Below are positions 33,240 to 49,165 of a DNA stretch of 64,000 nt, piece by piece (the first letter of the stretch is position 1; the number at the start of each line of letters is the position of its first letter). A program made the translations under genes and the position numbers. The stretch comes from Spirochaetaceae bacterium (GTDB lineage: Bacteria; Spirochaetota; Spirochaetia; SZUA-6; DRHE01), in NCBI GenBank assembly GCA_020353535.1, contig CP070696.1, positions 1,821,989-1,885,988 on the forward strand, read 5' to 3'. Below the pieces are notes generated by a model, which was given only the letters and a program-made list of their open reading frames with translations, had not been told where the DNA came from and did no database searches.

Positions 33240-33265
33240 GCGTGCGGATCAATTATTCTTGCTAT

Positions 33266-33308
33266 AACGGGGAGCGCGGCCGCTGATCGGCAAGCTCCCC
33301 GTTTTTTT
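33266..33308 (+). terminator. Rho-independent terminator
   Basis: AACGGGGAGC (33266-33275) pairs with GCTCCCCGTT (33294-33303), followed by a T7 run. Confidence 0.75.
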
Positions 33309-33409
33309 GTTCTAGAGAACTGTCATGAGGAGTAAAAAAAACGGGATATATCGGAAATACTACTGTAGAATAGACGACATAACTGGAAAATAGAAACTCG
33401 TTATAAGTG

Positions 33410-33467
33410 GAAAAATCGAGATTTTCAGAAAACACGAGATAGCCAATGCAGAAATTCATACTATAAT
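33410..33467 (+). promoter_or_regulatory. Tandem 13-bp direct repeats plus a -10 box (activator-dependent promoter candidate)
   Basis: GAAAAATCGAGAT (33410-33422), 5 nt, GAAAACACGAGAT (33428-33440), 21 nt, TATAAT (33462-33467). There is no good -35 box. The same architecture recurs at 37551-37609. Confidence 0.5.
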
Positions 33468-33494
33468 GACCGCAGTCCAGCAGGAGAAATATTC

Positions 33495-35057
33495 ATGTCC
33501 GGATTAAGGATAAGAGCAATATACGGTCTACTCATCTTGATCTTTTGTTATCCTCAGAACGTATTTGCGATAGGTCGAGCGGAAGAAACGGCGGAATTAG
33601 TGACCGAAGAGGGAACGCCCGGGCTGCCCCTGGTTCAGGAACGGGTCACCTTGGATTATTTCATGGCCAATCACAAAACCGCGCCCTTTACAGCACAGGA
33701 TCTGACCATCGCCGAGTTGCAGAGAAGAACCAACGTCTTCTTCAATATCATCAGCATCGACTCCGGATATTGGGATAAGTACAAGGTCATGCTGGCATCC
33801 AACGATCTGCCCGATCTCATCTTTACCAACGTGGCGGATGCCAAGCGATATGGGATGGAAGGTCTTTTTCTGCCCCTCGACGAGCTTCTAGAAAAACATG
33901 GGAAAAACATACTGGCTGCGATCGAACAGGAGGGGATTGCTGAAGACATGCGGGCTCTTGATGGCAGGATCTACTTTTTCCCAAAGATATCCTTGCAGCA
34001 ACCCGAACCCTTCATGATCCGTCAGGATTGGCTGGATGCCTGTGGGCTGGATACCCCGGAAACCCTGGAAGATTTGTACCATATGCTGAAGACCTTCAAA
34101 GAGCGTGATCCCGCCGGCGGAGGGCAGACCATCCCTTACGGATCCCTGATGTACAACGATCCTTCGATCTGCTATTTAAATGCCTTCTATCGGGCCTTTA
34201 CCGTCGACCAGGATTTCATGCTCAAAGCAGAGAGGATGGTCTGGGGTCCGGCTCAGCCCGAGATGAAGCAGGCCATGAGGTATCTGAACAGGCTCTACGC
34301 AGAGGGGTTGCTGGATCCGGAAGCCCCGATCCTGGCGAAAAAGCAGTGGGAGGAGAGGGTGTCAGCAGGGCGGGTGGGGATGATCGTCTACTCGTCTGTA
34401 CGAACCGACTACTTCACCCGGGTTCTCAGGCAGACCGATCCTGAAGCCAAGATGATCGGAATGCCGCCACCCATCGGCATCGACGGGCAGAGACACGTGG
34501 CGCCTATGCCTCGATTCAGCACGGATTTTTGCATGGTTGTCTCCAAGGATTCACCACATGCCGAGCTGATCGTGAAGTTCTTCGATTACGTGTTTAGCCC
34601 CGAGGGGAGAATGATCGTCTCCTACGGTGTGGAAGGGGATTCCTATGAGATCCGGGATGGCAAACCCGTATTCAGCGAAAAAATGTACAGCAAAGAGGCG
34701 GGCTGGAACATGTTTGTAAAGGCTGCAATAGGCGGCAGGAGGATCGCCTGCTGGCCCTACGATGATGCTATGGTGCAGCAATTGAGGGGCACTCTATCCC
34801 TCGAGGCACTCCAACTCACCTGGCCCCATGTCGATCCACCGACACCGATTCTCAATTTCGATCAGCAGGAGCTCGGCATCATCGAAACCAGGTATCAGGA
34901 TCTCAAAGACAGGACCAGTGAGTTCCTGCTCAAATTCCTTACGGGCGAGCTTTCCGTGGACGCCGGCTGGGATGACTATATAGGGGAACTGAAGCGAGCG
35001 GGCCTGGATGAGCTGGAGGAAGCCTACAACCGGGCCTATGCCAGGCGATATCGTTAG
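33495..35057 (+). CDS. Large (about 520 aa) extracellular solute-binding protein, CUT1/LplA-like
   Basis: Signal peptide and family-1 SBP-like sequence throughout. Orphan (no permeases), immediately upstream of the membrane AraC-type regulator. Confidence 0.8.
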   Translation: MSGLRIRAIYGLLILIFCYPQNVFAIGRAEETAELVTEEGTPGLPLVQERVTLDYFMANHKTAPFTAQDLTIAELQRRTNVFFNIISIDSGYWDKYKVMLASNDLPDLIFTNVADAKRYGMEGLFLPLDELLEKHGKNILAAIEQEGIAEDMRALDGRIYFFPKISLQQPEPFMIRQDWLDACGLDTPETLEDLYHMLKTFKERDPAGGGQTIPYGSLMYNDPSICYLNAFYRAFTVDQDFMLKAERMVWGPAQPEMKQAMRYLNRLYAEGLLDPEAPILAKKQWEERVSAGRVGMIVYSSVRTDYFTRVLRQTDPEAKMIGMPPPIGIDGQRHVAPMPRFSTDFCMVVSKDSPHAELIVKFFDYVFSPEGRMIVSYGVEGDSYEIRDGKPVFSEKMYSKEAGWNMFVKAAIGGRRIACWPYDDAMVQQLRGTLSLEALQLTWPHVDPPTPILNFDQQELGIIETRYQDLKDRTSEFLLKFLTGELSVDAGWDDYIGELKRAGLDELEEAYNRAYARRYR

Positions 35058-35107: not shown

Positions 35108-35150
35108 TATTCTACATTAGAAAATAACTCATATTGCTGCCTTGCCTGAA

Positions 35151-37463
35151 ATGAAAGAGCGTCTGGTCGGTCGCAACAGCCAATTCAAGAGAAGTGTATT
35201 TCTTAGGATATTTTTCTCTCTGATGAGCCTTACTCTTATACCGATCTTTATTCTTGCGTTGACCTCCTACTTCGTGTTTTACCGATCCATGAAAACTCAA
35301 AGCGACGATTTCGATCGGCTGATATTGAGTACGCTTTCGGAGAAGATCGATCGAGAATTGGAGGAAATTAAGGAGATACTGTTCCGATATTCCCTGTTCA
35401 TGGACATCGACCAGGAGAACTATGGACGACTTTTAGGTGTTGTCAGGGAGTTGGGCGGGATTGCCGGCACCAACGACTTTGTTGAAGACATCTTTATATA
35501 CATTATCGATTCCGGGCAGGTACTGACTCAAAACGGGCTCTATTACGCGGATGTTTTTTTCGACAAGGTGTACAGGTATGCTGGTCGAACCGGATTGATG
35601 TTCCAGCAAAGATTACATGAACAGAATAACTTCTATATTTTGAGCACCACGGAGGTGATTCAAGATTCGTTCATCAACAATCGCTATCTCACCATAATGA
35701 ACTCTGTGCCTCTCAGAGAAGATCCCCGAGCGAATCTGGTTGTTCTTGTGGATGAAGCTTCTCTGCATGCCCCTTTTCATGCCACCGGTTTGGCCTCAAG
35801 AGCCGATCAGATCGCCATAGTCAATACTTCCTTGGAGTTGATCGCTGGATCAATCGATGAGACTCTGGATCAAGGCGTGTTGAGGGAACTGCTGGCAGAA
35901 ACAGAAACAGAGAAACTGTCCGCAGCTCACGGTGATCGCCTTGGGAGCAGCTACGTATTCCATTCCCGCTCATCGGTAACCGATTGGCATTACCTGGTGT
36001 TCACACCAGTAAATCAAATCACCAAACAGGCGGCTTCCATCCGTAATATTACGATTTGGATATGTGCTGTATTAGTAATTGTCAGCTTTCTGCTGACTTG
36101 GATAATTTCCATGAATCTATACAGTCCGATCAGGGAAATTGTTGCGACCATACGGAATTCACCGGTCTCAGAGCAAGAACGGGCAGTAAAGACTGATGAG
36201 ATGAGTTACATCCTGAACCATGTCAAGTATGTAATGGAACGAAACAAGAGTCTGGATGCCGGTATGAAGCAGGTCGAGCCGGCCTTTCGAGACCATTACC
36301 TGCGCTCGCTAATCCTCGGTATTCCGAATAGGATGATCAGCGATAGTGATACCGGTGTAAAACTGGATTGGCCCCATGCCAATTTTGCCGTACTAGTGGT
36401 CCAGATTTCATTCTTGGGGGACACCGTTCCTCCAGAATATTCTCGTGAATCCATGACAGATGATGTCTTACGCTATCTCGAGGAGGTCCTGAATAGCGCG
36501 GAGGGAATGGTGGGGGTGATAACCTATATCGGTAAGTCTCAGATGACCATTTTAGTGAATCTGGATACCGAACAAACCCTGGGCGTCCTATTGCGGGAAG
36601 TCGAATCCCAGATTAAACGATACTCGGAAAAGTACCGCTGTTCTATTGCCATGGGAATCGGCGGATTTTGTAGAACCATGTCGCAGATCAATGGATCATA
36701 CGAGGAAGCTCTGAAGGCTCTTCACGGGAGGATAATAGGAGCCAAATACCAGATCATTCATTTCAATAATATGGGGAAGGCACAAACATCAAAACCAAGG
36801 TTAAACTACCCGATCGAACGGGAACGACAGTTGATCTACAAGGTGCTTGCCGGGAACCATGAAAAAGTCGTGGAAGAGATCAACGGGATAATTGCCAATA
36901 ATCTTTTCGAAGAGATCACCTATAATCACCTAATATCCCTGTTTGATCAATTCATCGCGACGGCAGGTAAAGTCCTGAACAAAGACAAAAGTATCAAACT
37001 CGAATCGGAGGAAAAGGAGTTTCTGCATCACTACCGCTACAACAAACCCGAAAATCTAGCGGCTATGCGGAGGAGTGTGTTGGACATCTATGAACGAATC
37101 ACCGATGCCTTTTCCCAGAAAAAGAATACGAAAGGGGAGGGTTTGAAGGAAAAGCTGGTTCGTTACATCCAAGATAACTATCCTGCTCCCGATCTTTCTC
37201 TGGATAGAATAGCCGCCGAATTCGATCTGAATCCCAAATACGTGAGCAGATACTTCAAAGAGCAAACCGGTACCAACTACCTCGACTACCTGAACATGAT
37301 CAGAATCAAACAGGCCAAAGAGTTGTTGATGAAAAATGATAAACTGAAGATTCTGGAAATAAGCAAAATGGTGGGTTTCTACAACGTAAATACGTTTATT
37401 GCCGTCTTCAAGAGAATTGAAGGGGTAACACCAAACGCCTTTCGAAAGCTTTCGCGGGCGTAA
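35151..37463 (+). CDS. Membrane-anchored AraC/XylS-family transcriptional regulator with a large extracytoplasmic sensor region
   Basis: Two TM segments (residues about 20-45 and about 300-325 of the ORF) flank a periplasmic-type domain. C-terminal double HTH (IAAEFDLNPKYVSRYFKEQTG...ISKMVGFYNVNTFIAVFKR). No receiver domain. An upstream in-frame TTG at 35142 is possible. Confidence 0.8.
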   Translation: MKERLVGRNSQFKRSVFLRIFFSLMSLTLIPIFILALTSYFVFYRSMKTQSDDFDRLILSTLSEKIDRELEEIKEILFRYSLFMDIDQENYGRLLGVVRELGGIAGTNDFVEDIFIYIIDSGQVLTQNGLYYADVFFDKVYRYAGRTGLMFQQRLHEQNNFYILSTTEVIQDSFINNRYLTIMNSVPLREDPRANLVVLVDEASLHAPFHATGLASRADQIAIVNTSLELIAGSIDETLDQGVLRELLAETETEKLSAAHGDRLGSSYVFHSRSSVTDWHYLVFTPVNQITKQAASIRNITIWICAVLVIVSFLLTWIISMNLYSPIREIVATIRNSPVSEQERAVKTDEMSYILNHVKYVMERNKSLDAGMKQVEPAFRDHYLRSLILGIPNRMISDSDTGVKLDWPHANFAVLVVQISFLGDTVPPEYSRESMTDDVLRYLEEVLNSAEGMVGVITYIGKSQMTILVNLDTEQTLGVLLREVESQIKRYSEKYRCSIAMGIGGFCRTMSQINGSYEEALKALHGRIIGAKYQIIHFNNMGKAQTSKPRLNYPIERERQLIYKVLAGNHEKVVEEINGIIANNLFEEITYNHLISLFDQFIATAGKVLNKDKSIKLESEEKEFLHHYRYNKPENLAAMRRSVLDIYERITDAFSQKKNTKGEGLKEKLVRYIQDNYPAPDLSLDRIAAEFDLNPKYVSRYFKEQTGTNYLDYLNMIRIKQAKELLMKNDKLKILEISKMVGFYNVNTFIAVFKRIEGVTPNAFRKLSRA

Positions 37464-37550
37464 GGAACCTCGCCTGCGCTATCCCGCATACGCTTCGACG
37501 CCGTAGTAGAAAAACCAGGATAAATGGAAAACAGATCCCGCCTGCAGGTA

Positions 37551-37609
37551 GAAAAATCAAGATAAATTGAAAAATCACGATTCGTAAGTAGATTCATGCC
37601 TCCTAAAAT
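37551..37609 (+). promoter_or_regulatory. Tandem 13-bp direct repeats plus a -10 box (second copy of the 33410 architecture)
   Basis: GAAAAATCAAGAT (37551-37563), 5 nt, GAAAAATCACGAT (37569-37581), 22 nt, TAAAAT (37604-37609). Lies 30 nt upstream of the MBL gene start. Confidence 0.5.
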
Positions 37610-37639
37610 GAGTTTTACCGTATGTGATAGGAGGCAGGT

Positions 37640-38416
37640 ATGACAAGAATCTTTCTGGGCGCGATGGTGATCGTAACGGTGGCCGCATGTAGTCATAGAC
37701 CGACATCAGCGGTTTCTTTTCCAGAGGGAGAAAATCGAGTCATCACAGTGCCTCTGAGGAGTTCCAATGTCTTCTTTATTGAAGCAGAACAAGGCTATGT
37801 GATGGTCGATACGGGTATGGGTTCTAGTACAAACGCGGTGGAAGAGCTGTTCTCCAGTGCCGGAATCGAGCCGGCAGAAGTTACCCTGATTATTGTTACC
37901 CATGTGCACCCGGATCATGTTGGGGGACTGTTTTCCGCCAAAGAGCTGACTGGGGCGAGGGTGCTTTGCCACAAGAATGCTGCGAAGTTTATCGAGGAGG
38001 GGAGAAGTGAACCGATTGTCAGCCACAGCGCAATGGGTTCCATAATGGGTGCTATTACCCCCAAGAAGTTTAAGGGAGTTGTGCCGGATGTGTTAACGGA
38101 GGATGAGTTCGAGCTTCGGGACTACGGGTTGGCCGGTACGATTGTCCATTCTCCGGGTCATAGCTCAGGATCCATTACGATTAACCTGGATAATGGAGAA
38201 ACCCTGGTGGGTGATCAGGTGCGGGGGGAACTCGCAGATCTTTCTATAGGAAAGTTCTACGAGAATAAAGCGCTGCTAATCAAAGACCTCGAAACAGTGG
38301 CTCAGCACAATCCCCGGGTCATCTATATGTCTCACGGGACATACACCGATAACCAAACCCTCGCGGAGTTCATCGAGGAGCAGAGGCAATTGCTCGCCGC
38401 TGATGAGGCCTCTTGA
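37640..38416 (+). CDS. MBL-fold metallo-hydrolase, probable lipoprotein
   Basis: Lipobox-like VTVAAC. HxHxDH motif (THVHPDHVGG). Downstream His/Asp ligands (HSPGHS). Confidence 0.85.
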   Translation: MTRIFLGAMVIVTVAACSHRPTSAVSFPEGENRVITVPLRSSNVFFIEAEQGYVMVDTGMGSSTNAVEELFSSAGIEPAEVTLIIVTHVHPDHVGGLFSAKELTGARVLCHKNAAKFIEEGRSEPIVSHSAMGSIMGAITPKKFKGVVPDVLTEDEFELRDYGLAGTIVHSPGHSSGSITINLDNGETLVGDQVRGELADLSIGKFYENKALLIKDLETVAQHNPRVIYMSHGTYTDNQTLAEFIEEQRQLLAADEAS

Positions 38417-38487
38417 GGTGACAGGAAACGAGGGATCTGACCTTTTCAGGTAGAGAAGCCGAAGAGGGGCAGGGTAGAGGATAGACA

Positions 38488-40470
38488 TTGAGCACCGGAA
38501 GTCTTAGCGCCAAAGCCACATCGCTTCAATCAATAATCCGTCAAGAACTTGAAAACAAGATTTACCTCGCTCTCCAGCGCTACGCGAACGTGCATAGAGG
38601 TGCGGGTCAACATGCCCAAATCTCGACCCGGCTCTACGACAAAGCCAGAGAGGTTGTTCTGGACTATTTGGGTTTGGAGGGGAGAGAATACTGTGCGATA
38701 TTCGGTACCAGAAGAATGTTGTCTCGTCTGAATCGTTCCATTCTCTCAACCGAATCCGTATACCGGGTGTTCAGCAATGACCTGGGCTTGCCCCTGGGAA
38801 TCGGTGCCCTCGCATTTAGAAAGAGCTCTCTGCCCGTAGGAGTGCCGGATCAACGCGGCGGCGGAACAGTCAATCTGGTCTCGAGGAACCACGTGATCTG
38901 GAAAAATGCCCCGGAGAGGTTTGAAGCAGGCACACCGAACATAATCGGGGTGGTCATTCTGGCCGCAGCCCTGCAATTGATAAGAAGGTACGGTGATATC
39001 GATGTTTTCCGGCAAAAAGATGCCCCGAGTAGTGCAAGGTCGATACTGTACACCGGTGAAACAGATGGTGAGACGGGGCTTGAGCTCTTGGAGAAACTCA
39101 GGCTGAGTGCGATCGGCCGTGGTTCGGCTGTACCAACCTCTGCAGGTTTTCTGCCGTTTGTGAATTTCGACAGCGCCGCCAGCACACCGACTTTCCTGTC
39201 GGTTTGGAATACCGTTCGCCGGACATTGAGGCAGCCGCAGGTTCCGCTTCAAGAAATTTCGATAGAGGTCGAGAATCTATGCGCCGAGTTCTTTCAGGCA
39301 CCCCTGGATGAGTACGAGGTGCTGTTTATTTCCAACTCGACTGAGGGGATTAATATCGTTGCCGAGTCCTTGCGGCACTCTGGAGATACGAAGAATCGTA
39401 ACCGGACTACTGTACTGATTTCCGAAATGGAGCACAATTCAAATGAGCTCTCCTGGCGGTACGCCCCGGGGATATCGTTGTTGAGATTACCGGTAGACCA
39501 CGAGGGATTTATCTGTCTCCGGAAGCTGGAAGAGACTTTGTCGGCCTACAACCGGGAAGGTCGATTCGGCGGTCGGCGAATTCGGCTGGTAGCGGTCAGT
39601 GGATGTTCCAATGTGGTCGGGGCGATGAACGATCTAGAGAAAATCAGCGTAGTCGTTCACAGGTATGGAGCTTCCCTCCTGATCGACGCCGCCCAGCTGG
39701 CGGCGCATCGCAGAATCGATATGCAGGAGGCGGGCATCGATATCTTGGTGTGTTCCGGCCACAAGATGTACGCGCCCTTCGGAGCCGGCCTGCTGATTGT
39801 TCGAAAGGGGCTTTTGAATATTTCGGCTGGTGAGCTAAACAGCCTGCGGTCAACGGGTCTGGAGAACGCAGTGGGCATCGCCGCCCTGGGAAAGGCGATG
39901 GACTTGCTGTCGCGGGTCGGTATAGAAACGATTCGCGCAAGAGAGAAGGAACTGACGCGTCGGGCGATTGAGGGGCTCCACGGAATTCCCAGTGTTCAGA
40001 TCTACGGTGTGTCGGACATATTATCCGACAGATTTGAGAGCAGAGGACCGGTTCTGGCGTTTCGTTTAAAAAACGTGCATCACAATCTTGCCGCCAAGAT
40101 GCTTGCCGAGATCGGAGGAATAGGAGTGCGGAGCGGTTGTTTCTGCGCGCACCTGTTTGTCAAGCAGCTTATGGGGATAAGCAGCCTCCAATCCTTTGGC
40201 TCCAATGTAACGATGTTGCTCAGCCCGCATCGGATTGAACAGGCACTTCCCGGGATCGTGCGGGCCAGCTTCAGTTTCCTAAATACCGAAGATGAAATCG
40301 ACCATTTCCTTCGAATCCTCGGTCAGATCGCAGCGGCGCCGATGCCTTTCCTCAACCGCCTGTTTGCCCGCTCGTACTACGGTACTCCCCGGCTGCCGGT
40401 GACAGTCGAGCAGCAGCGAATCGAGGAAATGATTGCCAAAGTGGAGACAGAGATCTATGGCGCGCACTGA
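38488..40470 (+). CDS. Atypical class-V PLP-dependent enzyme (cysteine desulfurase/SufS-like) with a degenerate extra half-domain
   Basis: Complete class-V core (FDSAASTP, SNSTEGIN, SGHKMYAPFGAG PLP-lysine, VRSGCFCAH Cys loop). It is preceded by about 190 aa that repeat the HRG segment and the GGG...ERFEAGTPN segment but lack a PLP lysine. TTG start. Confidence 0.75.
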   Translation: MSTGSLSAKATSLQSIIRQELENKIYLALQRYANVHRGAGQHAQISTRLYDKAREVVLDYLGLEGREYCAIFGTRRMLSRLNRSILSTESVYRVFSNDLGLPLGIGALAFRKSSLPVGVPDQRGGGTVNLVSRNHVIWKNAPERFEAGTPNIIGVVILAAALQLIRRYGDIDVFRQKDAPSSARSILYTGETDGETGLELLEKLRLSAIGRGSAVPTSAGFLPFVNFDSAASTPTFLSVWNTVRRTLRQPQVPLQEISIEVENLCAEFFQAPLDEYEVLFISNSTEGINIVAESLRHSGDTKNRNRTTVLISEMEHNSNELSWRYAPGISLLRLPVDHEGFICLRKLEETLSAYNREGRFGGRRIRLVAVSGCSNVVGAMNDLEKISVVVHRYGASLLIDAAQLAAHRRIDMQEAGIDILVCSGHKMYAPFGAGLLIVRKGLLNISAGELNSLRSTGLENAVGIAALGKAMDLLSRVGIETIRAREKELTRRAIEGLHGIPSVQIYGVSDILSDRFESRGPVLAFRLKNVHHNLAAKMLAEIGGIGVRSGCFCAHLFVKQLMGISSLQSFGSNVTMLLSPHRIEQALPGIVRASFSFLNTEDEIDHFLRILGQIAAAPMPFLNRLFARSYYGTPRLPVTVEQQRIEEMIAKVETEIYGAH

Positions 40471-40951
40471 CCTGAAAAACACCCCGGTCCAGGCTTCAGA
40501 CCAACCCCGCGCCGCTGTCTCACCTCCCACGGTGTTTGTGGCTGCGATTGTTCTCGGTGTCGTTCTCGATTTGCTTGTACCCGTAGATCTGCTGCCCGGA
40601 GCAGCCCAGCTGAGTGCCGGACTACCGGTTATCGGATTTTCCGTGTTTCTTTCCGCCGTTTCATTTCGAAGCTTCGCGAAAAACGGCACAACCGCGGGTC
40701 ATAAAGAGAAACCGGTCGTGCTGATTACCAATGGACCCTTTGGATACACCCGCAATCCACTGTATCTCTCAGGCCTTCTGTTGGTACTTGGTTTCGGCTT
40801 TTTATTGGATAGCATCTGGATTTTTGCTCTAACAATCCCGGTGATGATCATCGTCCATTACGGTGCCGTCTTAAAGGAAGAGGATTATCTGCTGGATCAT
40901 TTTGGTAAGGAGTATGAGCAATACAAAACGTCGGTTAGGCGATGGATTTGA
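40457..40951 (+). CDS. ICMT/PEMT-family membrane methyltransferase
   Basis: Multi-TM protein with NPLYLSGLL and C-terminal EEDYLLDHFGKEYEQYKTSVRRWI, typical of isoprenylcysteine carboxyl / phospholipid methyltransferases. ATG at 40457 with GGAGA 9 nt upstream. Confidence 0.75.
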   Translation: MARTDLKNTPVQASDQPRAAVSPPTVFVAAIVLGVVLDLLVPVDLLPGAAQLSAGLPVIGFSVFLSAVSFRSFAKNGTTAGHKEKPVVLITNGPFGYTRNPLYLSGLLLVLGFGFLLDSIWIFALTIPVMIIVHYGAVLKEEDYLLDHFGKEYEQYKTSVRRWI

Positions 40952-42090
40952 CGGCGTCACCACTTCAGAAATCGAGGAGTACAATTATGTTGAACGCATC
41001 AACATCAACAACAGAGGACGTTGGCTTCGCCAAAATGTTGAGCAGCCTCTTGCGCATCTTTTTTTGGGATGCACTCAGGATCAGTATCAGGAATCCGGCT
41101 CGGGCTCTGTTTTTCCTGAGAACCGTGGGTCGGCAGAGAAAAGCCGCTGGCGTTCGATCAAGGTGGCGGAAGCAGGGCTTCCATATTCCTCCCATCGCTC
41201 TTTTTAGCGTCACTAATAAGTGCAATCTTCACTGCAAGGGGTGTTACTCCTGGGCGTTGCACAGGTCGAATGGCACGGAGCTCAGCACAGAGGAACTTGA
41301 CCGAGTCTTTGCGGAAGCGAAAGCTTTGGGAATTTTGTTCTTCGCCCTTGCCGGCGGCGAGCCCTTCGTACGCCCTGATATCATTGAAGTTACCAGCAGA
41401 TACCCAGAGATCATATTTCTTGTTTTCACAAACGGACTGCTCATCGATTCCGAGATGATTGGCAAGGTGAAGAAGCAGAAGAACATCATTCCGGTTATCA
41501 GCCTTGAGGGATACAAGGAGGATACGGACGGACGCAGAGGGGAAGGGGTTTTTCAGCATCTACAGAAAATCATAAATAGACTGAAGGCCAGCGATATTTT
41601 CTACAGTATATCCATCACCCTCACACGTTCGAATTTTACCACGGTGACGAATGACCAATTTATTAACAAGCTGGTTGATTTGGGCTGCAAGCTGCTTTTC
41701 CTGGTGGAGTACAGTCCGGTACAGGAAGGGACGGAAGATTGGGTAATCAGTGAGCAGCAGAGAGGGGAGTTAATGGGTTGTGTGAAATCCTTCCGCTCCA
41801 AGTATAAAAGTTTGTTTATTTCGATTCCCGGAGACGAAGAAGAAATCGGCGGCTGTCTCTCCGCAGGCCGGGGATTCGTGCATATCAGCGCCAGCGGGGA
41901 CGTGGAGCCCTGTCCGTTCGCACCCTACTCAGATGCCAACCTGCGGGATTCATCCTTGAAGGAGGCTCTGCAGTCCAAATTCTTGAGTACAATTCGCAAT
42001 AATCGCGACATGCTGTCCGAAGCCGAAGGAGGCTGTGCTCTATGGGTGAAACGGGATTGGATTCGATCCCTGCTCCATGAGCCTGAGTGA
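40942..42090 (+). CDS. Radical SAM enzyme, uncharacterised subfamily
   Basis: CNLHCKGCY (CxxxCxxC) cluster motif and GGEPF SAM-binding motif. C-terminal region has three further Cys (GGCLSAG, EPCPFAP, GGCALW) that could hold an auxiliary cluster. Confidence 0.85.
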   Translation: MDLTASPLQKSRSTIMLNASTSTTEDVGFAKMLSSLLRIFFWDALRISIRNPARALFFLRTVGRQRKAAGVRSRWRKQGFHIPPIALFSVTNKCNLHCKGCYSWALHRSNGTELSTEELDRVFAEAKALGILFFALAGGEPFVRPDIIEVTSRYPEIIFLVFTNGLLIDSEMIGKVKKQKNIIPVISLEGYKEDTDGRRGEGVFQHLQKIINRLKASDIFYSISITLTRSNFTTVTNDQFINKLVDLGCKLLFLVEYSPVQEGTEDWVISEQQRGELMGCVKSFRSKYKSLFISIPGDEEEIGGCLSAGRGFVHISASGDVEPCPFAPYSDANLRDSSLKEALQSKFLSTIRNNRDMLSEAEGGCALWVKRDWIRSLLHEPE

Positions 42091-42106
42091 CGGAGAGGAG
42101 TTTCCG

Positions 42107-42163
42107 ATGTTTGAACGTACGCGTTCGACGTCAAAATTATACGATTCAACCTTAACGTACTGA
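42107..42163 (+). CDS. 18-codon micro-ORF (MFERTRSTSKLYDSTLTY), hypothetical
   Basis: Not in the ORF track because it is too short. GGAGAGGAG lies 6 nt upstream of the ATG. Its stop codon overlaps the AGGAGG RBS of the next gene. There is no homology evidence. Confidence 0.25.
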   Translation: MFERTRSTSKLYDSTLTY

Positions 42164-42175
42164 GGAGGTACAAAA

Positions 42176-42463
42176 ATGGCGGACCGAGAGAAGAGGCAGG
42201 AATTGGCTGCCAAAATTGGCAAGGGAAAAGCGGATTTTATCCGGCATCTGATCACCTACCTGGTGGTTATTACCATCCTGGCGGTTATCAACAATGTCAC
42301 GGATTCGGGAGGGTACCAGTGGTGGCTGTGGCCCGCCGGCTGTTGGGGAGTATTCGTTGTAATCAACTTCCTGTCGGCCTTTGTTTTTAAAGCCGGCACC
42401 TTCAAACGATTGGAGGATCAGCTGGCCGAAAAAGAGCTGGAAAAGATGAACCGCGGGAATTGA
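42176..42463 (+). CDS. 2TM-domain membrane protein
   Basis: Charged N-terminus, two adjacent TM helices (FIRHLITYLVVITILAVIN / WWLWPAGCWGVFVVINFL) and a charged tail. Strong RBS. Confidence 0.65.
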   Translation: MADREKRQELAAKIGKGKADFIRHLITYLVVITILAVINNVTDSGGYQWWLWPAGCWGVFVVINFLSAFVFKAGTFKRLEDQLAEKELEKMNRGN

Positions 42464-42539
42464 ATCCAACTGATCGTTTCCACTGTAGGAGACCCGTCAT
42501 TCATATTGCACCCTTAGATCCTGGGAGGAGTGTGCAGCA

Positions 42540-43016
42540 ATGAAGCGAATCGATCTTGGCGACATCGGGAACATCGCCGAGGCTGTAGCCGCTATCGGCG
42601 TCATCGTCTCTCTGATCTATCTGGGCGTGCAGATCCAACAAAACACGAATGCCATTCGGGCTTCAAGCTATCAGAGTATTGCCGATGATATCACGGAATT
42701 CCAAATGGGATTGGCTCAAAACGGCGACCTGGCTCGTATTTACCTCGTAGGCCTTGAAAATCCGCAGCAATTGACCCCAATTGAAAAGGCGCAACTTGAC
42801 AACTACTTGGGAGTGCTCTTTGCCCGCTTCGATACGGCGGTGGAGCTGTACAATCGTGGCATGATCGATGACAGAGCCATGGCTCCGTACTCCAGGTTCA
42901 TCCTCTTTCAGCTCGAGTTTCCCGGAGTGGCTGCGTATTGGCAGGATGCCCAGATTTTTTTCAGCGACGGTCTTCGTGACCACATCGAGAGCATCAGGCG
43001 ATCGGGTCCGGAATGA
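42540..43016 (+). CDS. Hypothetical single-pass membrane protein
   Basis: N-terminal TM (AEAVAAIGVIVSLIYLGVQI) followed by a helical soluble region. No family recognised. Confidence 0.5.
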   Translation: MKRIDLGDIGNIAEAVAAIGVIVSLIYLGVQIQQNTNAIRASSYQSIADDITEFQMGLAQNGDLARIYLVGLENPQQLTPIEKAQLDNYLGVLFARFDTAVELYNRGMIDDRAMAPYSRFILFQLEFPGVAAYWQDAQIFFSDGLRDHIESIRRSGPE

Positions 43017-43737
43017 GGTGTCTCTTGTGCTACCAAAACGATGCTTCCCTGATAAAAGTCGCCGCGCTGCTGGCGGTATACGTGTTTTTCCTGCTTCTGC
43101 GTTCGAGGTTGGGTAGACCTATCACGAAAGGGATTGGCGCGTTCCTCTGGGGATTCCCGGGATGATCTATCTGTTGGGGCTTGTTCTGGCCGTTCCCATG
43201 GCCTATATCGATCCGGAAAGCTTACTCGGGATGAGAGCGTTCAACGGTTGGAATATGGTTTATTACCTCATCATTCTGTTCTTGGGATTCTTGATTTTCG
43301 CGGATGAGAGGATTCAGCAGGCCATCGTTAAACAGCGCTTTGTCTCCCTCATCCTCGGAATCGCCCTTCTGGTACTGCTCGACAGGGGACTTTTCATTAA
43401 AACTCAAACCCCATCGGTGGGTCCGGTGTTTCAGGAAACGATTGCTTCCTGGTGCTTCGTTCTGGCCATACTTGGACTTTGCATGAAGCACCTTACCGTT
43501 TCGGGCCGCTTTCTGAGTTATGCCACGGAGGCAGTCCTTCCTTTCTACATGCTGCATCAACCGATAATCTTGCTGACTGCCTTTTGGATCGTACAACTCC
43601 GGATCCCCATCCTGGTTAGGTATCTCATTATAGTGATCCTCTCCCTCGCCGGCATCATGCTTTTATACGAGGGCATCAGACGGGTCAGTGTGCTGCGCTT
43701 ATGCTTCGGCATGAAGGCGCGAAGGGGAAAATCATGA
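43013..43737 (+). pseudogene. Acyltransferase-3 family paralogue, 5'-truncated and frameshifted
   Basis: A 50-codon frame (43013-43165, ..FFLLLRSRLGRPITKGIGAFLWGFPG) and the 191-aa ORF (43162-43737) align consecutively to residues about 165-396 of the intact downstream paralogue (LLLFLRSEAGRSFVNKLAGICLRPGG / ...EAVLPFY..LYEG..). The frames switch at about 43160-43165. The N-terminal approx 165 aa is absent. Confidence 0.6.
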
Positions 43738-44891
43738 CGGAGCGAAGGTACGATATCGATTGGTTGAGAGTGATTGCCGTTTTGGCAGTCTTCCTGCTGC
43801 ACACATCCCAGTATTTCGATACCGAAGGCTGGATTCTAAAGAATGCCGAGCGGTCCTTCATCGTCAATGTGCTCAGGGGAGCTTTGCTCGATATGTGGGT
43901 CATGCCCCTTCTGTTCCTACTCTCCGGGGCAGCATCCTGGTATGCGCTTAAATCCAGGAACGCCGGGCAATATCTCCTTGATCGGGGCAAACGGCTTTTA
44001 ATCCCTCTGTACGGTGTTGGCCTTTTCATCCTCCTGCCGCCTCAAGCCTATATCGATTGGTCTGTCAACAGGGGCTACAGCGGTACTATTTGGGAACTGT
44101 TTCCGCGCTATCTGGGCAACCTGAGTTTAAACTTTAGAACCCCCTATTCAACGCTTCCCTATGCCGGGCATCTGTGGTTCCTCCAGCACCTGTTTATTAT
44201 CTCCCTGGTGATGCTGCCGCTGCTCCTTTTCCTTAGATCAGAAGCAGGCCGGAGTTTCGTCAACAAACTGGCCGGTATTTGCCTGCGCCCGGGGGGTGTC
44301 TTCCTGTTTTTGCTTCCCCTGATCGCGGTTCGTATCGCTTTCAAGCACTTCATGTTTGCGGGACCGAATTCTTGGGCGGATCTGTTCACCTACGCTGTTT
44401 TCTTTGTAATCGGCTATATCATCGCGGTAGACCCAAGCTATACCGATAGTATAAAGAAACATGGCTGGATAGGCCTGGCCCTGGGAATAGCCGGTTTCTC
44501 TGGTTTTGTTTTTTTGCTGAACGCCGGCTACAACCGTGACGCTGAGCCCTTTTCTCTGAAATATGTTCTTTTCCATATCGCAGAGATCGTCAGCATATTT
44601 GGCTGGATCGTGTTTATTTTCAGTATGGCAGCCAAACACCTCAACTTCAGAAGCAGAGTAATATCCTACGGAAACGAGGCGGTGCTGCCCTTCTACATAT
44701 TCCATCTTACGGTTGCCCACCTGGCTGCCTGGCTTGTCTTGTCCTGGAACCTGGGAATCGTGCCGAAATTCCTGATTATCACGGTGGTTTCCTTCATTCT
44801 GATCATAGCCCTGTACGAAGGATTCGTTCGGCATTTCAACGTCATGAGATTTATTTTCGGAATGAGGCCCAAGAAAAAGCGGATTGAATAA
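43734..44891 (+). CDS. Acyltransferase-3 family membrane O-acyltransferase
   Basis: ATG at 43734 (ATGA overlap). N-terminal YDIDWLRVIAVLAVFLLH motif and about 10 TM helices. Confidence 0.8.
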   Translation: MTERRYDIDWLRVIAVLAVFLLHTSQYFDTEGWILKNAERSFIVNVLRGALLDMWVMPLLFLLSGAASWYALKSRNAGQYLLDRGKRLLIPLYGVGLFILLPPQAYIDWSVNRGYSGTIWELFPRYLGNLSLNFRTPYSTLPYAGHLWFLQHLFIISLVMLPLLLFLRSEAGRSFVNKLAGICLRPGGVFLFLLPLIAVRIAFKHFMFAGPNSWADLFTYAVFFVIGYIIAVDPSYTDSIKKHGWIGLALGIAGFSGFVFLLNAGYNRDAEPFSLKYVLFHIAEIVSIFGWIVFIFSMAAKHLNFRSRVISYGNEAVLPFYIFHLTVAHLAAWLVLSWNLGIVPKFLIITVVSFILIIALYEGFVRHFNVMRFIFGMRPKKKRIE

Positions 44892-45143: not shown

Positions 45144-47096
45144 GTGTTCGATGTTCTCGTTGTCGATAACCATCCGCTGATTCGCGAGTATCTCTCGGCC
45201 CTGCTTGGAAAAGAAGGGTACACCGTGCTCACCGCGAAAGATGGACTGGCCGCAATCGATGTGCTTCGCAGGTCGAATCCCAAAGTGATCTTCGTCGACC
45301 TGGTTATGCCAAATATCGACGGACAGACCTTCTGCCGCATCCTTCGCCGAATGCCGAAACATAAATCATGTTTCCTGGTTGTTCTGTCGGCGACGGCGGC
45401 AGAGAGCACGATTCCCGTAAAAGACATCGATGCCAATGCCTATATTGCAAAGGGACCATTTAAAAAGATGGGCGGGCATATACTCGATGTTCTGGAGTTG
45501 GCACAGAAGAGCGATTTCAAGGCCGTGGAAACCGAAGTCCGAGGATTGGATGACATCCACGCACGGGAGATTACCAAGGAACTGCTCCTGTTGAAGAGGC
45601 ATTTCGAAGTGGTCCTGGCCAGCATGAACGAAGGGATACTGGAAATCAACAAGGACGGCAGAATCGTGTACGCCAACGGAGCTGCCATCGAGATTACGGA
45701 AATAGTCGAGGAGCGGCTGCTTGCCTCGAGGTTTCTCGATTTATTCGACCAAGAGATGCGTGAGGACGTTGCCTCGTATCTGGAGGAGATTTCTGCCAAG
45801 AGGGACGAGCGGTCCTCGGCTGGTATCGAGATTCGGCTTGGAAACAGGGAATTGGAGCTGCGGGTCTATCCGATTCGTGAGAATGGAGAAAAATCGATCG
45901 TCCTGCTCGTGGATATCACGGAAAGAAAGCGTTTTGAGGGTCAGCTGCGGCGTTCCCAGCGTCTTGAATCGATCGGTACTCTGGCGGCCGGGGTCGCCCA
46001 TGATTTCAACAATCTGCTGACGGTCATCCAGGGGAATACTGACATCATGACCATGAATCTCGAGCAGACCCATCCCCATTACGAGCGGCTTCAAGAGATC
46101 CTCCGCCAGGTGAAAAGTGCCAAGCGACTGACGGGGCAGCTGCTCGGTTATGCCCGCAAGGGGAGGTTCGAGGTTCGTTTGCTGGATCTCAACCAGCTGA
46201 TTCGAGAAACTGCGGAGACCTTCGGCCGGACCCGCAAGGAAATCTCGATAAATGTGCAGTTGGATCCCGGACTTGAGGTATTTGAGGGAGACGCCGGCCA
46301 GATCGAACAGATGGTTCTGAATCTTCTGCTTAATGCGGGGGATGCGATGCCAGGTCAGGGTAGCCTGGATATCCAAACCCAGAACGTCAATCACGCTGAA
46401 ATCTCAAGCGATATCTTTACTCCGAAAGCGGGGAAATACGTAATGATTGCGGTTCATGACACCGGCATTGGAATGGATCGTGAGACAAGGGAGCGCATTT
46501 TCGAGCCGTTTTTCACCACCAAGGAGATGGGGCGCGGCACCGGCCTGGGTCTTGCCTCTGTGTACGGGGCCGTCAAGGGACACGGAGGATACATCGATGT
46601 GGAATCCGAGATCGGGAAGGGAACCACCTTCCGCATCTATCTTCCAGTAAAACGCTCCTCAGGTGTGCAGGAAACGATAGAACAGCAGGAGCAGACCTAC
46701 AGCTCTCCCGAACCGTCGGCCCACGGCACGGTTCTCCTCGTCGACGATGAACCGGCTGTATGCAAGGTAGCTACGGAAATCCTGCACAAACTACATTTCA
46801 GCGTGCTGGCTAGCGAAAGCGGTACAGAGGCTCTGCGCGTGTTTCGGGAGAATCGCGAAGCGATCGTGCTGGTGATTCTTGACATCGTCATGCCAGGCAT
46901 GGGAGGGAGCCAGGTCTTTCACGAGCTCCGTGCTCTCGATCCGGAGGTGAAGATCCTTCTGTGCAGCGGATATAGCATCCAGGGTGAAGCCGAACGTCTG
47001 CTCGGTATGGGTGCCAACGGTTTTATCCAAAAGCCCTTCAGCCTGCATGGTCTGGAGAAGAGCATCAGCGATATTTTGGAACCCGGGGGGCAATAA
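45144..47096 (+). CDS. Hybrid histidine kinase REC-PAS-HisKA-HATPase-REC
   Basis: N-terminal receiver (VLVVDNHP...FVDLVMPNIDG), PAS, His[13 protein letters not shown], HATPase (NLLLNAGDAM, DTGIGM, GRGTGLGLA), and a C-terminal receiver (VLLVDDEP...ILDIVMPGMGG...KP). GTG start with AGAGG RBS. Confidence 0.85.
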   Translation: MFDVLVVDNHPLIREYLSALLGKEGYTVLTAKDGLAAIDVLRRSNPKVIFVDLVMPNIDGQTFCRILRRMPKHKSCFLVVLSATAAESTIPVKDIDANAYIAKGPFKKMGGHILDVLELAQKSDFKAVETEVRGLDDIHAREITKELLLLKRHFEVVLASMNEGILEINKDGRIVYANGAAIEITEIVEERLLASRFLDLFDQEMREDVASYLEEISAKRDERSSAGIEIRLGNRELELRVYPIRENGEKSIVLLVDITERKRFEGQLRRSQRLESIGTLAAGVAHDFNNLLTVIQGNTDIMTMNLEQTHPHYERLQEILRQVKSAKRLTGQLLGYARKGRFEVRLLDLNQLIRETAETFGRTRKEISINVQLDPGLEVFEGDAGQIEQMVLNLLLNAGDAMPGQGSLDIQTQNVNHAEISSDIFTPKAGKYVMIAVHDTGIGMDRETRERIFEPFFTTKEMGRGTGLGLASVYGAVKGHGGYIDVESEIGKGTTFRIYLPVKRSSGVQETIEQQEQTYSSPEPSAHGTVLLVDDEPAVCKVATEILHKLHFSVLASESGTEALRVFRENREAIVLVILDIVMPGMGGSQVFHELRALDPEVKILLCSGYSIQGEAERLLGMGANGFIQKPFSLHGLEKSISDILEPGGQ

Positions 47097-47097
47097 A

Positions 47098-47421
47098 ATG
47101 GATCTCCCGTCTCTGGCTGAGGAGCTTGGGCTGGAGGTGGCGGATGTCCGGCGGCTTGTGCTGACGTTTGCGGAAGCGACCGAGGGGGACCTCATGCGCC
47201 TGGAACTGGCTTTTACCGACCGGGACGTGGAGCAGCTGCGCAGGACAGCCCATCATATAAAAGGGGCGGCCAGCAATCTGGAGTTCACGGAGATCGCGGC
47301 GGCCGCGTTGGCGATCGAAGACAAGGCCCGGTCTGGGATTCTCGAGGATCCGGCCAATTCGATCGCACGGATCCGCGGTGAGTTGAATTCGATTCGCATC
47401 CAGTTGCATAATGGTGAGTAG
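47098..47421 (+). CDS. Hpt (histidine phosphotransfer) domain protein
   Basis: AHHIKGAASNLEF phosphohistidine motif. About 107 aa. Starts 1 nt after the kinase stop. Confidence 0.8.
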   Translation: MDLPSLAEELGLEVADVRRLVLTFAEATEGDLMRLELAFTDRDVEQLRRTAHHIKGAASNLEFTEIAAAALAIEDKARSGILEDPANSIARIRGELNSIRIQLHNGE

Positions 47422-49165
47422 GGGCATGGCTGTATCGATATCACGCAGAGAGATTGATAAAGAGGCGGATGACAATATCACTTTGGGCCGGCTCCTGCGA
47501 ATAGGCCGGGAGGAACCGAAGAAACAAGCCGTGGAACGCATTTTGGCCTCCGATCTTCGTATCCGCCAGAAGATCGAGAAGATCCGGGAGATCGATGAAA
47601 AACAGGAAGCGCAGGAGATCGAGCGGATCGTGCAGCGGGCCTATCTTCAGGCCGTGCGCCGGCAATTCGTCAGGATTCGTGATGCCATTAAAGCACCTCA
47701 GAAAAGCATCCCTTATTTTCCCTACCTGCTAAGAGAACGGGGGCGAGTTCGGGAGTTTGGCCGGAAAACCCATGTACTGAGTGCACCTTTACTACCTCCG
47801 GGGGTTCGCATAAATCGGGAGCTGCGCAATTTTTTTGTGCAGCATCTCCAGAATTGGTCGGCGGAAATTTCTCCGCGTTTGAACTTAATCGCCGAGCACG
47901 GCTGGCTGCATCTTACACCTCTGCAGTACAACCTGGTTGTGTTGCTCAAAGTACTTGCAGATAAAATCCTGGCCTTTGATTTCGTGCACCTGAACTACCG
48001 GGATCGGAATCTCATCGATAAGCTGAAACGAATCGAAAGCCTCTTCCTCATGCTGCACTACCGGGCGGTGTACATCGACAGCATCTTCGATTCCATCCTG
48101 ACGGTCTACAAAAAACAGGGCCACAAGGAGGAAGAGGGAAGGGAGATTCGAAGTCTGGCCGTTCGCATTTTGACAAAGGAGGTCAGCCTGCCATCGCTGT
48201 ACAACTGCATCGTTGGCCTCAATATGGTCAAGTACCGGCGTTTTCTCAGCCTCGATGACCTGATACAGCCGCAGCTGGGCGATTCGGTCAGTGCGCGGGA
48301 GTTCAATTGCAGTATCGAGGTCCGCAGCCGCATCGATGAATATGTCCGTAAATCTCTCGATTCTATAAAAAAACTTCACAGCCAGTTGTATGAGGTGCGG
48401 CGTCTGAACAGATACCTGAACTACGATGAGCAGGGCGGTATCGATTCGTCGAATCTCCGGAGTTTGTACGAACGGACTGTTCAAGAGGAGGCAGGGGGAT
48501 ACGAAACCGATCAGGGCAACGTCCTGCTGTTCGCCCAGCGTTTGTTCGAAGCCTTTTACAGAACATTCCTGCCCTTGCTGAACGGAAAGGTGCAGATCGG
48601 CGGGATTGGTCGGGAGGCGATTTTTTCCCGTTCCTTCTACGAGATCGAGATGGCCAGGCTGGGAACGATCATCGAGAGGCTGAAAAAAGGTCCTTTCCAT
48701 TTCAGGAATTTTCCTCTGTCCCAATACCTGCAGGTCAAGGAAGCCAAGATAGGAGCGATTGGTACCGAAACGGAATTGATTCAGCTCATCGACGAGGGCA
48801 TCGCCTGTTTGGCCGATCTGGGTAAGAGTCTGGCCAGAGTACTGGGCTCGAGTGTGGAAAATGTCGAAGGTTCTGCAGCGCAACCTCTGGAACCGCTGAT
48901 TTTTCAAGGCAAACCGTATTCCATTCCCTGCGCTGAGCAGAATATCCGGGATCGTTCCTACCTGGAAGGAAAAACTGTATCCGAGGCTCTGGGTGACGGG
49001 GTATCCCTGTGTTTTACCATGGGCATGCTCTTCAGGGACCGTTTCGTTTACTTTGTCCTGGGCAGCGCCAGAAGGTACGAGGCTGAGCTCCAGGCTCAGT
49101 TAAGGCTCCTGAAAAACCTGATCGATCCCGAACATTATCAGGAAATCCTGTCCCGGTATCAGTAG
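47411..49165 (+). CDS. Hypothetical 584-aa cytoplasmic protein, no recognisable domain
   Basis: Long ORF overlapping the Hpt stop by 11 nt (alternative ATG at 47426). Helix-rich, with no TM, P-loop or HTH motif that I can identify. Confidence 0.6.
   Translation: MVSRGMAVSISRREIDKEADDNITLGRLLRIGREEPKKQAVERILASDLRIRQKIEKIREIDEKQEAQEIERIVQRAYLQAVRRQFVRIRDAIKAPQKSIPYFPYLLRERGRVREFGRKTHVLSAPLLPPGVRINRELRNFFVQHLQNWSAEISPRLNLIAEHGWLHLTPLQYNLVVLLKVLADKILAFDFVHLNYRDRNLIDKLKRIESLFLMLHYRAVYIDSIFDSILTVYKKQGHKEEEGREIRSLAVRILTKEVSLPSLYNCIVGLNMVKYRRFLSLDDLIQPQLGDSVSAREFNCSIEVRSRIDEYVRKSLDSIKKLHSQLYEVRRLNRYLNYDEQGGIDSSNLRSLYERTVQEEAGGYETDQGNVLLFAQRLFEAFYRTFLPLLNGKVQIGGIGREAIFSRSFYEIEMARLGTIIERLKKGPFHFRNFPLSQYLQVKEAKIGAIGTETELIQLIDEGIACLADLGKSLARVLGSSVENVEGSAAQPLEPLIFQGKPYSIPCAEQNIRDRSYLEGKTVSEALGDGVSLCFTMGMLFRDRFVYFVLGSARRYEAELQAQLRLLKNLIDPEHYQEILSRYQ

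Follow-up and report, generated by a model that had tools for sequence, protein, structure and literature searches.

A stretch of 64,000 nucleotides (nt) from contig CP070696.1 of a Spirochaetaceae bacterium (assembly GCA_020353535.1, positions 1,821,989 to 1,885,988), hereafter the window, carries at 37640-44891 a string of nine consecutive open reading frames (ORFs), all on the + strand, behind the gene of an AraC-type regulator and a promoter region with two direct repeats. An earlier note, made from the sequence alone, had read these nine co-directional genes as one enzyme and membrane operon. The genes are indeed present at the coordinates it gave, and Pfam backs its domain calls (Lactamase_B, Aminotran_5, PEMT, Radical_SAM, 2TM and Acyl_transf_3). 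When we compared the neighbourhood with about 170 related loci, only the regulator, the repeat promoter and the first five genes recurred, and only in a small clade of Spirochaetota. This conserved core consists of the following features.

35142..37463, + strand: membrane-anchored AraC-type regulator of 773 amino acids (aa), with a GGDEF_2-like domain and HTH_18/HTH_AraC in Pfam
37506..37573, + strand: promoter region with two 26-nt direct repeats, 37506-37531 and 37548-37573, located by repeat search
37640..38416, + strand: MBL, a metallo-beta-lactamase-fold metallo-hydrolase and probable lipoprotein (Pfam Lactamase_B, 85.6 bits; signal peptide ending in VAAC)
38488..40470, + strand: AT5L, a 660-aa, rearranged SufS-type class V pyridoxal 5'-phosphate (PLP) enzyme (Pfam Aminotran_5, 255 bits in two stretches)
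40457..40951, + strand: PEMT, a 164-aa integral-membrane S-adenosylmethionine (SAM) methyltransferase of the ICMT/PEMT family (Pfam PEMT PF04191, 54 bits, cutoff 25)
40987..42090, + strand: rSAM, a 367-aa radical SAM enzyme (Pfam Radical_SAM, 61 bits, cutoff 29.5; SPASM, 23.1 bits, borderline at a cutoff of 21.5)
42176..42463, + strand: 2TM, a 95-aa 2TM-domain membrane protein (Pfam 2TM, 53 bits) with a strong Shine-Dalgarno sequence

The relatives retain this core in different combinations, listed here in gene order with aa identities to the window.

L173: AraC regulator (74%), MBL (62%), AT5L (54%), PEMT (48%), rSAM (74%, at the contig end)
L171, the closest relative (rSAM 85%): AT5L, PEMT, rSAM, then DUF3237 and DUF6326 genes on the opposite strand
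L001 and the P0013 contig: 3b-type [NiFe] hydrogenase delta and alpha genes, AT5L, PEMT, rSAM, 2TM
L147: AT5L, PEMT, rSAM, 2TM
L085/86: hydrogenase, AT5L, PEMT, 2TM, without rSAM
L081-84 (about 85% nt identity to L001 downstream): rSAM and 2TM, after unrelated VWA genes
L174: flavodoxin, AT5L, rSAM, a membrane protein and flavodoxin, without PEMT
L168-170 (L168 2620-4434): AraC regulator (76%), conserved promoter, AT5L remnant (38-91), PEMT remnant (126-170), intact rSAM, internally deleted 2TM

Across these loci the order of the AT5L-PEMT-rSAM trio is constant while its flanks vary, with the regulator and MBL in some loci and the hydrogenase in others. The core splits into two sub-modules, AT5L-PEMT and rSAM-2TM. 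L168, together with L169 and L170, is a natural decay variant in which rSAM is kept while AT5L, PEMT and 2TM decay. 2TM is the usual 3′ partner within the clade, standing after rSAM in L001, L081-84, L147 and the P0013 contig and after PEMT in L085/86; it is absent from L171, and in L168 the internal deletion has removed its transmembrane core. MBL has an orthologue at the same position in L173 and none in L168 or the hydrogenase-type loci. In addition, paralogues of AT5L (68% identity), PEMT (68%) and rSAM (81%) are encoded outside the window on the same 4.84-Mb contig, a metagenome-assembled genome (proteins P0122, P0244 and P0004). AT5L appears to be split by a frameshift or stop in L001 (7130-9463) and L174 (3412-5315), and rSAM likewise in L173 (5959-7015); these splits in contigs of metagenome-assembled genomes could reflect recurrent pseudogenisation or assembly error.

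The earlier note had proposed a neighbourhood survey for co-occurrence of the rSAM, ICMT-like and class V genes, and had held that its proposal would fall if they were conserved together nowhere else. Inside the clade they do recur as AT5L-PEMT-rSAM on several related contigs with different flanks; outside it, this co-conservation is essentially lacking. Thus rSAM is solitary in 79 of 80 loci of species-representative genomes, with AT5L, PEMT and 2TM homologues alongside it only in the Spirochaetota locus L001. Similarly, 64 of 65 full or partial metagenome loci with AT5L have no rSAM, the exception being L147, which also carries PEMT and 2TM. De novo clustering of neighbouring genes gave no conserved partner for rSAM (80 loci) or for AT5L (69 loci), and, beyond the clade, hidden Markov models of its 2TM and PEMT gave no match around rSAM or AT5L. 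One apparent case of rSAM and AT5L on a single contig in another phylum was rejected, since it involved two different contigs that are both, by coincidence, 24,005 nt long.

The remaining four ORFs of the string lie downstream of 2TM.

42540..43016, + strand: mem158, a 158-aa single-transmembrane protein with a strong Shine-Dalgarno sequence and no Pfam, NCBIfam or PADLOC match
43013..43165, + strand: orf50, a 50-codon ORF without a family match or a clear Shine-Dalgarno sequence
43162..43737, + strand: 191-aa ORF whose match to Acyl_transf_3 covers only the C-terminal half of that domain (Pfam, 26.5 bits, cutoff 31; profile positions 166-325)
43734..44891, + strand: AT3, an intact OpgC/MdoC-like Acyl_transf_3 membrane O-acyltransferase (Pfam, 107 bits, profile positions 2-325)

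None of the four was found in any related locus long enough to include it. They are neighbours outside the conserved unit that may be co-transcribed with it, and the nine genes do not recur as a single operon in the loci compared. The micro-ORF that had been counted as a gene is probably not one: orf50 has no homologue in the related loci, and a candidate explanation of it as a remnant of the first transmembrane segment of AT3 was rejected when 108 of 500 shuffles reached the similarity score. The pair of O-acyltransferases is reduced to one. AT3 has the full Acyl_transf_3 domain of about 10 transmembrane segments, whereas the 191-aa ORF lacks it, aligns with AT3 residues 223-394 at 30% identity and has no N-terminal half upstream; it is likely a 5′-truncated paralogue of AT3, a gene remnant. 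AT3 itself scores 62 bits against MdoC in NCBIfam (cutoff 338), and a homologue near an rSAM gene was found in only one Bathyarchaeia locus, 6 kb away and on the opposite strand.

The junctions within the string are tight. The AT5L stop (40470) and the PEMT start codon (ATG at 40457) overlap by 14 nt, so that the two genes are translationally coupled, and an overlap of 4-26 nt is kept in every locus that has both genes. The ATGA couplings at 43013, 43162 and 43734 also stand as the earlier note described them. Its overlap of rSAM with PEMT, in contrast, does not: the rSAM start is most likely 40987 rather than 40942, because a GAGGAG Shine-Dalgarno sequence lies 8 nt upstream and the close homologues, database form included, are all 365-367 aa long, and this start leaves a 35-nt gap after PEMT. 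Exact-sequence look-ups of the 382-aa form of the rSAM ORF and of the paralogue P0004 gave no match. We found no convincing + strand intrinsic terminator in the intergenic gaps of the block, so co-transcription of all nine ORFs is possible. The single transcription unit of the earlier note is accordingly compatible with direction, coupling and the lack of a predicted terminator, but the relatives' loci do not support one conserved unit of eight or nine genes.

Composition adds little to this picture. At 51.7% G+C (GC) the block lies below the window's first half (57.4%), in the direction that the earlier note had seen; the difference is marginal when set beside the 53.5% of the next 19 kb downstream, and it is weak evidence for the accessory or foreign origin that had been read from it. 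The GC minimum of the whole window lies outside the block, in the AraC gene at 35142-37463 (45% GC; 54% at third codon positions), which is thus lower in GC than the enzyme genes under its apparent control.

Identity to the window's AraC protein is 76% for the regulator that immediately precedes rSAM in L168 and 74% for that ahead of MBL-AT5L-PEMT-rSAM in L173. The repeat-bearing promoter proposed before was confirmed as two 26-nt copies that are 88% identical, spaced 42 nt start-to-start, within an AraC-MBL intergenic region of 176 nt. Both copies are near-invariant among four loci (the window, L168, L169 and L173; alignment A3) while their flanks diverge, and a -10-like hexamer follows about 30 nt after the repeats (TAAAAT in the window, TATAAT in the relatives). 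The two repeats are likely an operator of the AraC regulator, and because both they and the regulator gene are conserved, their position and conservation support an AraC-activated promoter. The window also has a 14-nt inverted repeat at 37592-37605 and 37628-37641, in which UGCCUCCUA would pair with the MBL Shine-Dalgarno sequence UAGGAGGCA; its predicted minimum free energy is -15.5 kcal/mol (z = -2.4), it is not conserved in L173, and it is perhaps partly untranscribed because its 5′ arm overlaps the putative -10 element.

Upstream of the AraC gene, at 32055-35057, the window encodes two orphan substrate-binding lipoproteins, one Bmp/PnrA-like (394 aa) and one of the SBP_bac_1 family (520 aa, 33495-35057), with no adjoining ABC permease or ATPase genes. 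The earlier note had paired a substrate-binding protein (SBP) with the AraC regulator as a sensor of an external ligand. The regulator and promoter do precede the same genes in L168, L169 and L173, but the window's 520-aa SBP was not found upstream of AraC in L168, and for this reason its role as co-sensor is uncertain. In Bacillus subtilis, membrane AraC regulators of the YtdP type are paired with lipoprotein SBPs of the LplA/YtcQ type. The window regulator resembles them in its length (about 770 aa), its N-terminal membrane or sensor part, its C-terminal HTH_18/AraC domain and the adjoining 520-aa SBP_bac_1 lipoprotein. It differs from them in that no ABC permease genes are adjacent, in that the genes apparently regulated encode enzymes rather than sugar uptake, and in that the SBP is not kept upstream in L168.

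The alignment of AT5L with the SufS profile from the PDB is non-collinear: SufS 55-88 and 246-298 map to an N-terminal region of 190 aa and the remainder to AT5L 222-612. Two segments absent from the main domain, NVHRG and GGG..W..FEAGTPN, are found in this N-terminal region; the former corresponds to the helix at SufS 55-88 and the latter to the hairpin at SufS 246-298, and we observed the same rearranged architecture across phyla, Asgard archaea included. The motifs invariant in alignment A2 are SGHK with the PLP lysine, EH.SN, D.AQ..H and R.GC.CAH. Together with the SufS profile search, that alignment places H316, D400, Q403, H425-K426, R548 and C553 at the catalytic residues of type II cysteine desulfurases, all of them invariant. 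The AlphaFold2 model (mean pLDDT confidence score 84, predicted template-modelling score 0.89) takes the fold of Escherichia coli SufS, with a target-normalised template-modelling score of about 0.8. AT5L thus shares with SufS and CsdA/CsdB the SGHK lysine, the EH.SN and D.AQ..H motifs, the R.G..CA loop with the catalytic Cys and the predicted fold, and we infer that it is active as a cysteine or selenocysteine desulfurase.

AT5L nevertheless falls outside canonical SufS. It has 660 aa against about 405, where SufS proteins form a contiguous domain of about 400 aa; its segments are out of order, with the extra N-terminal region carrying pieces of SufS; its loop reads GCFCAH where SufS has GHHCA; and it scores 243 bits against the TIGR01979 cutoff of 475. 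No gene resembling the acceptors SufE, SufU or CsdE was found in the block or in the related loci, and, unlike in SufS systems, no SufE, SufU or SufBCD partner was seen near AT5L. Its family consists of proteins of 630-700 aa with 45-50% full-length identity from Chloroflexota, Bacteroidota, Asgard archaea and others. A PADLOC match to SspA/DndA is at the superfamily level, and no DndCDE or SspBCD components accompany it, so Dnd/Ssp phosphorothioation is not indicated. Some relatives have, immediately ahead of AT5L, the alpha and delta genes of a two-subunit, sulfhydrogenase-like [NiFe] hydrogenase of group 3b (L085 5887-7982, L001 4616-6663, L087 3849-6982). Such pairs occur in spirochaete loci and in a single Anaerolineae locus, and none was found in the window or in the other sampled AT5L loci. 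In one Anaerolineae genome the hydrogenase small subunit is fused to cyclic nucleotide (cNMP)-binding domains.

PEMT is a small polytopic membrane protein whose PEMT domain scores above the cutoff, as in Ste14, bacterial ICMT, LmtA and MddA, and it has the C-terminal SAM-binding motifs of the ICMT/PEMT family (RNPLY.SG and EE..L...FG.EY..Y). Unlike the named members it lies below every equivalog cutoff in NCBIfam (ICMT, 42 bits against 160; LmtA, 24.7 against 325; MddA, 17.9 against 270). Its subfamily appears to be limited to the spirochaete clade. Its close homologues number only nine; each shows signs of this gene context, and one of them is the 68% paralogue in the same genome. Its acceptor may be membrane-associated or sulfur-bearing. 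MBL, for its part, has the HxHxDH motif as HVHPDH, and its best NCBIfam match is the subclass B3 metallo-beta-lactamase model NF033105 (68.6 bits, cutoff 240); on this profile evidence the MBL fold, and only that, is established.

The rSAM protein belongs to the radical SAM superfamily by its CNLHCKGC cluster motif, which is invariant in 13 diverse homologues (alignment A1), as is a two-helix N-terminal extension of 65 aa. The extra C-terminal Cys residues noticed earlier were borne out as exactly three invariant positions, C290, C309 and C350 in the 367-aa form. These three auxiliary Cys are not the seven-Cys motif of SPASM domains that binds two [4Fe-4S] clusters; the pattern is compatible with a single auxiliary cluster of the twitch or MoaA-like kind. 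The closest solved structures are SkfB (the best PDB match, E 9e-16), SuiB, PqqE, viperins and anSME, at the superfamily level only. With SkfB, SuiB, PqqE, anSME, AhbD/NirJ and MftC the protein shares the CxxxCxxC core and a C-terminal extension bearing Cys. It differs from the named SPASM and twitch enzymes in its scores (at most 85 bits against cutoffs of 265-850), in its three auxiliary Cys, in its conserved N-terminal extension and in having no conserved partner gene. The best NCBIfam scores are 84.8 bits for AhbD (cutoff 500) and 79.8 for MftC (cutoff 265), others being lower, and no cutoff of a named equivalog was reached (AhbD, MftC, NirJ, PqqE, AlbA, SkfB, MoaA and others). Similarly, a PADLOC match to pVip (54 bits) is at the superfamily level only, which does not make rSAM a pVip defence protein. 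The AlphaFold2 model was poor (pLDDT 58) and its Foldseek matches were generic radical SAM folds, so it was not used for function.

The rSAM family spans Bacteria and Archaea at 50-68% identity and occurs in Spirochaetota, Aminicenantes, Dehalococcoidia, WOR-3, KSB1, Bacteroidales, Clostridia, Methanocellales, Thermoplasmatales and Bathyarchaeia, among others. By Pfam, no family of adjacent genes is present in more than 5 loci (76 upstream and 71 downstream neighbours); flavodoxin is the commonest, with 5 cases upstream and 4 downstream, and no conserved small ORF was found among the same neighbours. Because no neighbouring gene is conserved, the function of rSAM elsewhere cannot be read from its genomic context. 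We suggest that rSAM is a flavodoxin-dependent enzyme with one three-Cys auxiliary cluster and a common small substrate. In some other loci rSAM directly follows a class-I SAM methyltransferase (L177 9129-11119, 15-nt gap). In Geosporobacter ferrireducens (L051 9289-11041) it directly follows a TetR regulator, with YeeE/YedE-like sulfur transporter genes and a thioredoxin-reductase fusion upstream.

By their profile matches the components belong to known superfamilies (MBL, SufS-type PLP, ICMT/PEMT, twitch/SPASM-like radical SAM and Acyl_transf_3), and none reaches a curated family cutoff. The earlier statement that the combination matches no named pathway was upheld: none of the nine products reaches an NCBIfam equivalog cutoff, and no pathway described in Pfam, NCBIfam, PADLOC or Rfam fits the genes together. 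A full-text literature search for the combination returned nothing relevant, an Rfam scan of 33-46 kb and a plasmid collection gave no match, and the PADLOC defence models gave superfamily-level matches only.

We interpret the conserved unit as a clade-specific accessory operon in which AT5L-PEMT and rSAM-2TM are facultatively coupled. The anatomical part of this interpretation (what is core and what is not, the modularity, and control by AraC) is probable, the biochemical mechanism is doubtful, and the explanation taken whole is tentative, with somewhat less than an even chance of being right. The membrane-bound regulator would sense a ligand, possibly with the adjacent orphan SBP, and would bind the two repeats, which abut the -35 position, to activate transcription. 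The exported MBL lipoprotein would then hydrolyse an extracellular compound, and AT5L would make a persulfide on Cys553 from cysteine or selenocysteine, as expected from its complete set of type II cysteine desulfurase catalytic residues. PEMT, whose translation is coupled to that of AT5L, could methylate a membrane-associated or sulfur-bearing acceptor. Reduced by flavodoxin and with an open iron site in its three-Cys auxiliary cluster, rSAM would convert a small, widely available substrate and might do so without other proteins; AT5L and PEMT, where present, may give sulfur to and methylate its product.

Functional coupling is suggested because the trio keeps its order although its flanks are exchanged and because it is duplicated in one genome; a further argument is the sulfhydrogenase-like pair ahead of AT5L in some loci, which indicates sulfur chemistry. 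An obligatory three-step pathway, in contrast, is disfavoured by the autonomy of both large families elsewhere and by the natural loss variants. Several points weigh against the facultatively coupled operon itself. AT5L and rSAM each stand alone in more than 95% of the sampled lineages, which makes obligatory coupling unlikely, and the genes could be neighbours in one clade because synteny was inherited, not because linkage was selected. The three paralogues are known from protein matches alone, and their mutual adjacency was not seen. With ICMT, LmtA and MddA scores all far below their cutoffs, O-, N- and S-methylation by PEMT are not separable; the apparent frameshifts in AT5L (L001, L174) and rSAM (L173) may be assembly errors; and since no terminator was found, the downstream genes may share a transcript with the core.

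The strongest rival takes the synteny argument to its end: the enzymes would be biochemically independent, brought together by descent and sharing, at most, the control of a stress or detoxification regulon, with no common substrate. The solitary rSAM (79 of 80 loci) and AT5L (64 of 65) of other lineages favour this, as does the occurrence of every sub-combination among relatives, and all co-located cases come from one clade; elsewhere the neighbours of rSAM are typical redox and detoxification genes (TetR, nitroreductase, SDR, flavodoxin). Yet the trio keeps its order and tight coupling though the flanks are replaced, and all three genes are duplicated in one genome, which is more than neutral synteny would usually maintain at 50-54% aa identity. 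We consider mere co-location rather unlikely, if still a serious contender. Sulfide or selenide handling is another proposal, in which AT5L would be a cysteine or selenocysteine lyase, PEMT would S- or Se-methylate the chalcogenide or a thiol as MddA does, rSAM would be an unrelated passenger and, in the alternative loci, the sulfhydrogenase-like enzyme would reduce the persulfide. AT5L-PEMT does occur without rSAM directly behind the 3b-type alpha/delta pair, the SufS/CsdB family includes selenocysteine lyases, and MddA, although a weak match, belongs to the same methyltransferase superfamily. However, PEMT reaches only 17.9 of the 270 bits required for MddA, elsewhere 64 of 65 loci have neither a methyltransferase nor a hydrogenase beside AT5L, and the window itself has no hydrogenase. 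We give this proposal a small share of the probability.

Two further models are less probable still. The earlier note saw eight or nine genes building or remodelling a sulfur-containing, methylated or acylated envelope lipid or glycan, a role in keeping with the common direction, short gaps, ATGA junctions and missing terminator, with the several membrane products and with the likeness of AT3 to the OpgC/MdoC glucan succinyltransferase (62 bits). Its downstream half (mem158, orf50, the AT3 fragment and AT3) is missing from every relative that reaches that far, one acyltransferase is truncated, orf50 is unsupported and the core has no glycosyl- or lipid-biosynthetic gene; the envelope role has no direct support, and the model is very improbable. 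Even less probable is a cluster for a ribosomally synthesised and post-translationally modified peptide (RiPP), with rSAM as the peptide maturase, PEMT methylating the C-terminal carboxylate, and orf50 or 2TM as the precursor. The closest solved relatives of rSAM include the maturases SkfB, SuiB and PqqE, small ORFs lie nearby, and ICMT enzymes methylate peptide C-termini; but rSAM proteins that are 50-60% identical across phyla and domains without a small-ORF neighbour are atypical for precursor-specific maturases. Moreover, rSAM has only three auxiliary Cys and, in place of a RiPP recognition element (RRE)-like domain, two N-terminal helices without an RRE family match; orf50 is not conserved, 2TM is a membrane protein and no conserved small ORF stands beside rSAM.

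Within the facultatively coupled operon, the boldest version would divide a route of thiolation and methylation (C-H to C-S-CH3, or its selenium equivalent) among AT5L, PEMT and rSAM, acting on a membrane-soluble small molecule. Persulfide sulfur would pass from AT5L to the open iron site in the three-Cys auxiliary cluster of rSAM, and PEMT would cap the new thiol in the membrane. We consider this improbable. The likeness to MiaB, RimO and MtaB is one of analogy only: the trio could jointly provide sulfur donation, radical C-H activation and SAM-dependent methylation, whereas those enzymes take C-H to C-S-CH3 in one protein, and rSAM has no UPF0004 or TRAM domain or family match, the activities being split over three proteins. 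If true, such a route would differ from the single-protein MiaB/RimO systems and would give a first function to a cross-domain rSAM family and to a family of rearranged, 650-aa SufS-like enzymes.

The module unites two large uncharacterised enzyme families, that of rSAM, which is widespread in anaerobic Bacteria and Archaea, and that of AT5L. The spirochaete clade is the only place where we found them linked, there under a regulator of a ligand-responsive type with a putative operator. The locus is thus an experimental handle on two orphan families, although nothing in it overturns expectations, and for annotation the block should not be labelled as one nine-gene pathway. Beyond the block, after a gap of 252 nt, the same strand encodes at 45144-47421 a hybrid histidine kinase that has PAS and two receiver domains, and with it a separate Hpt protein; next comes a 584-aa ORF without a Pfam match at 47411-49165.

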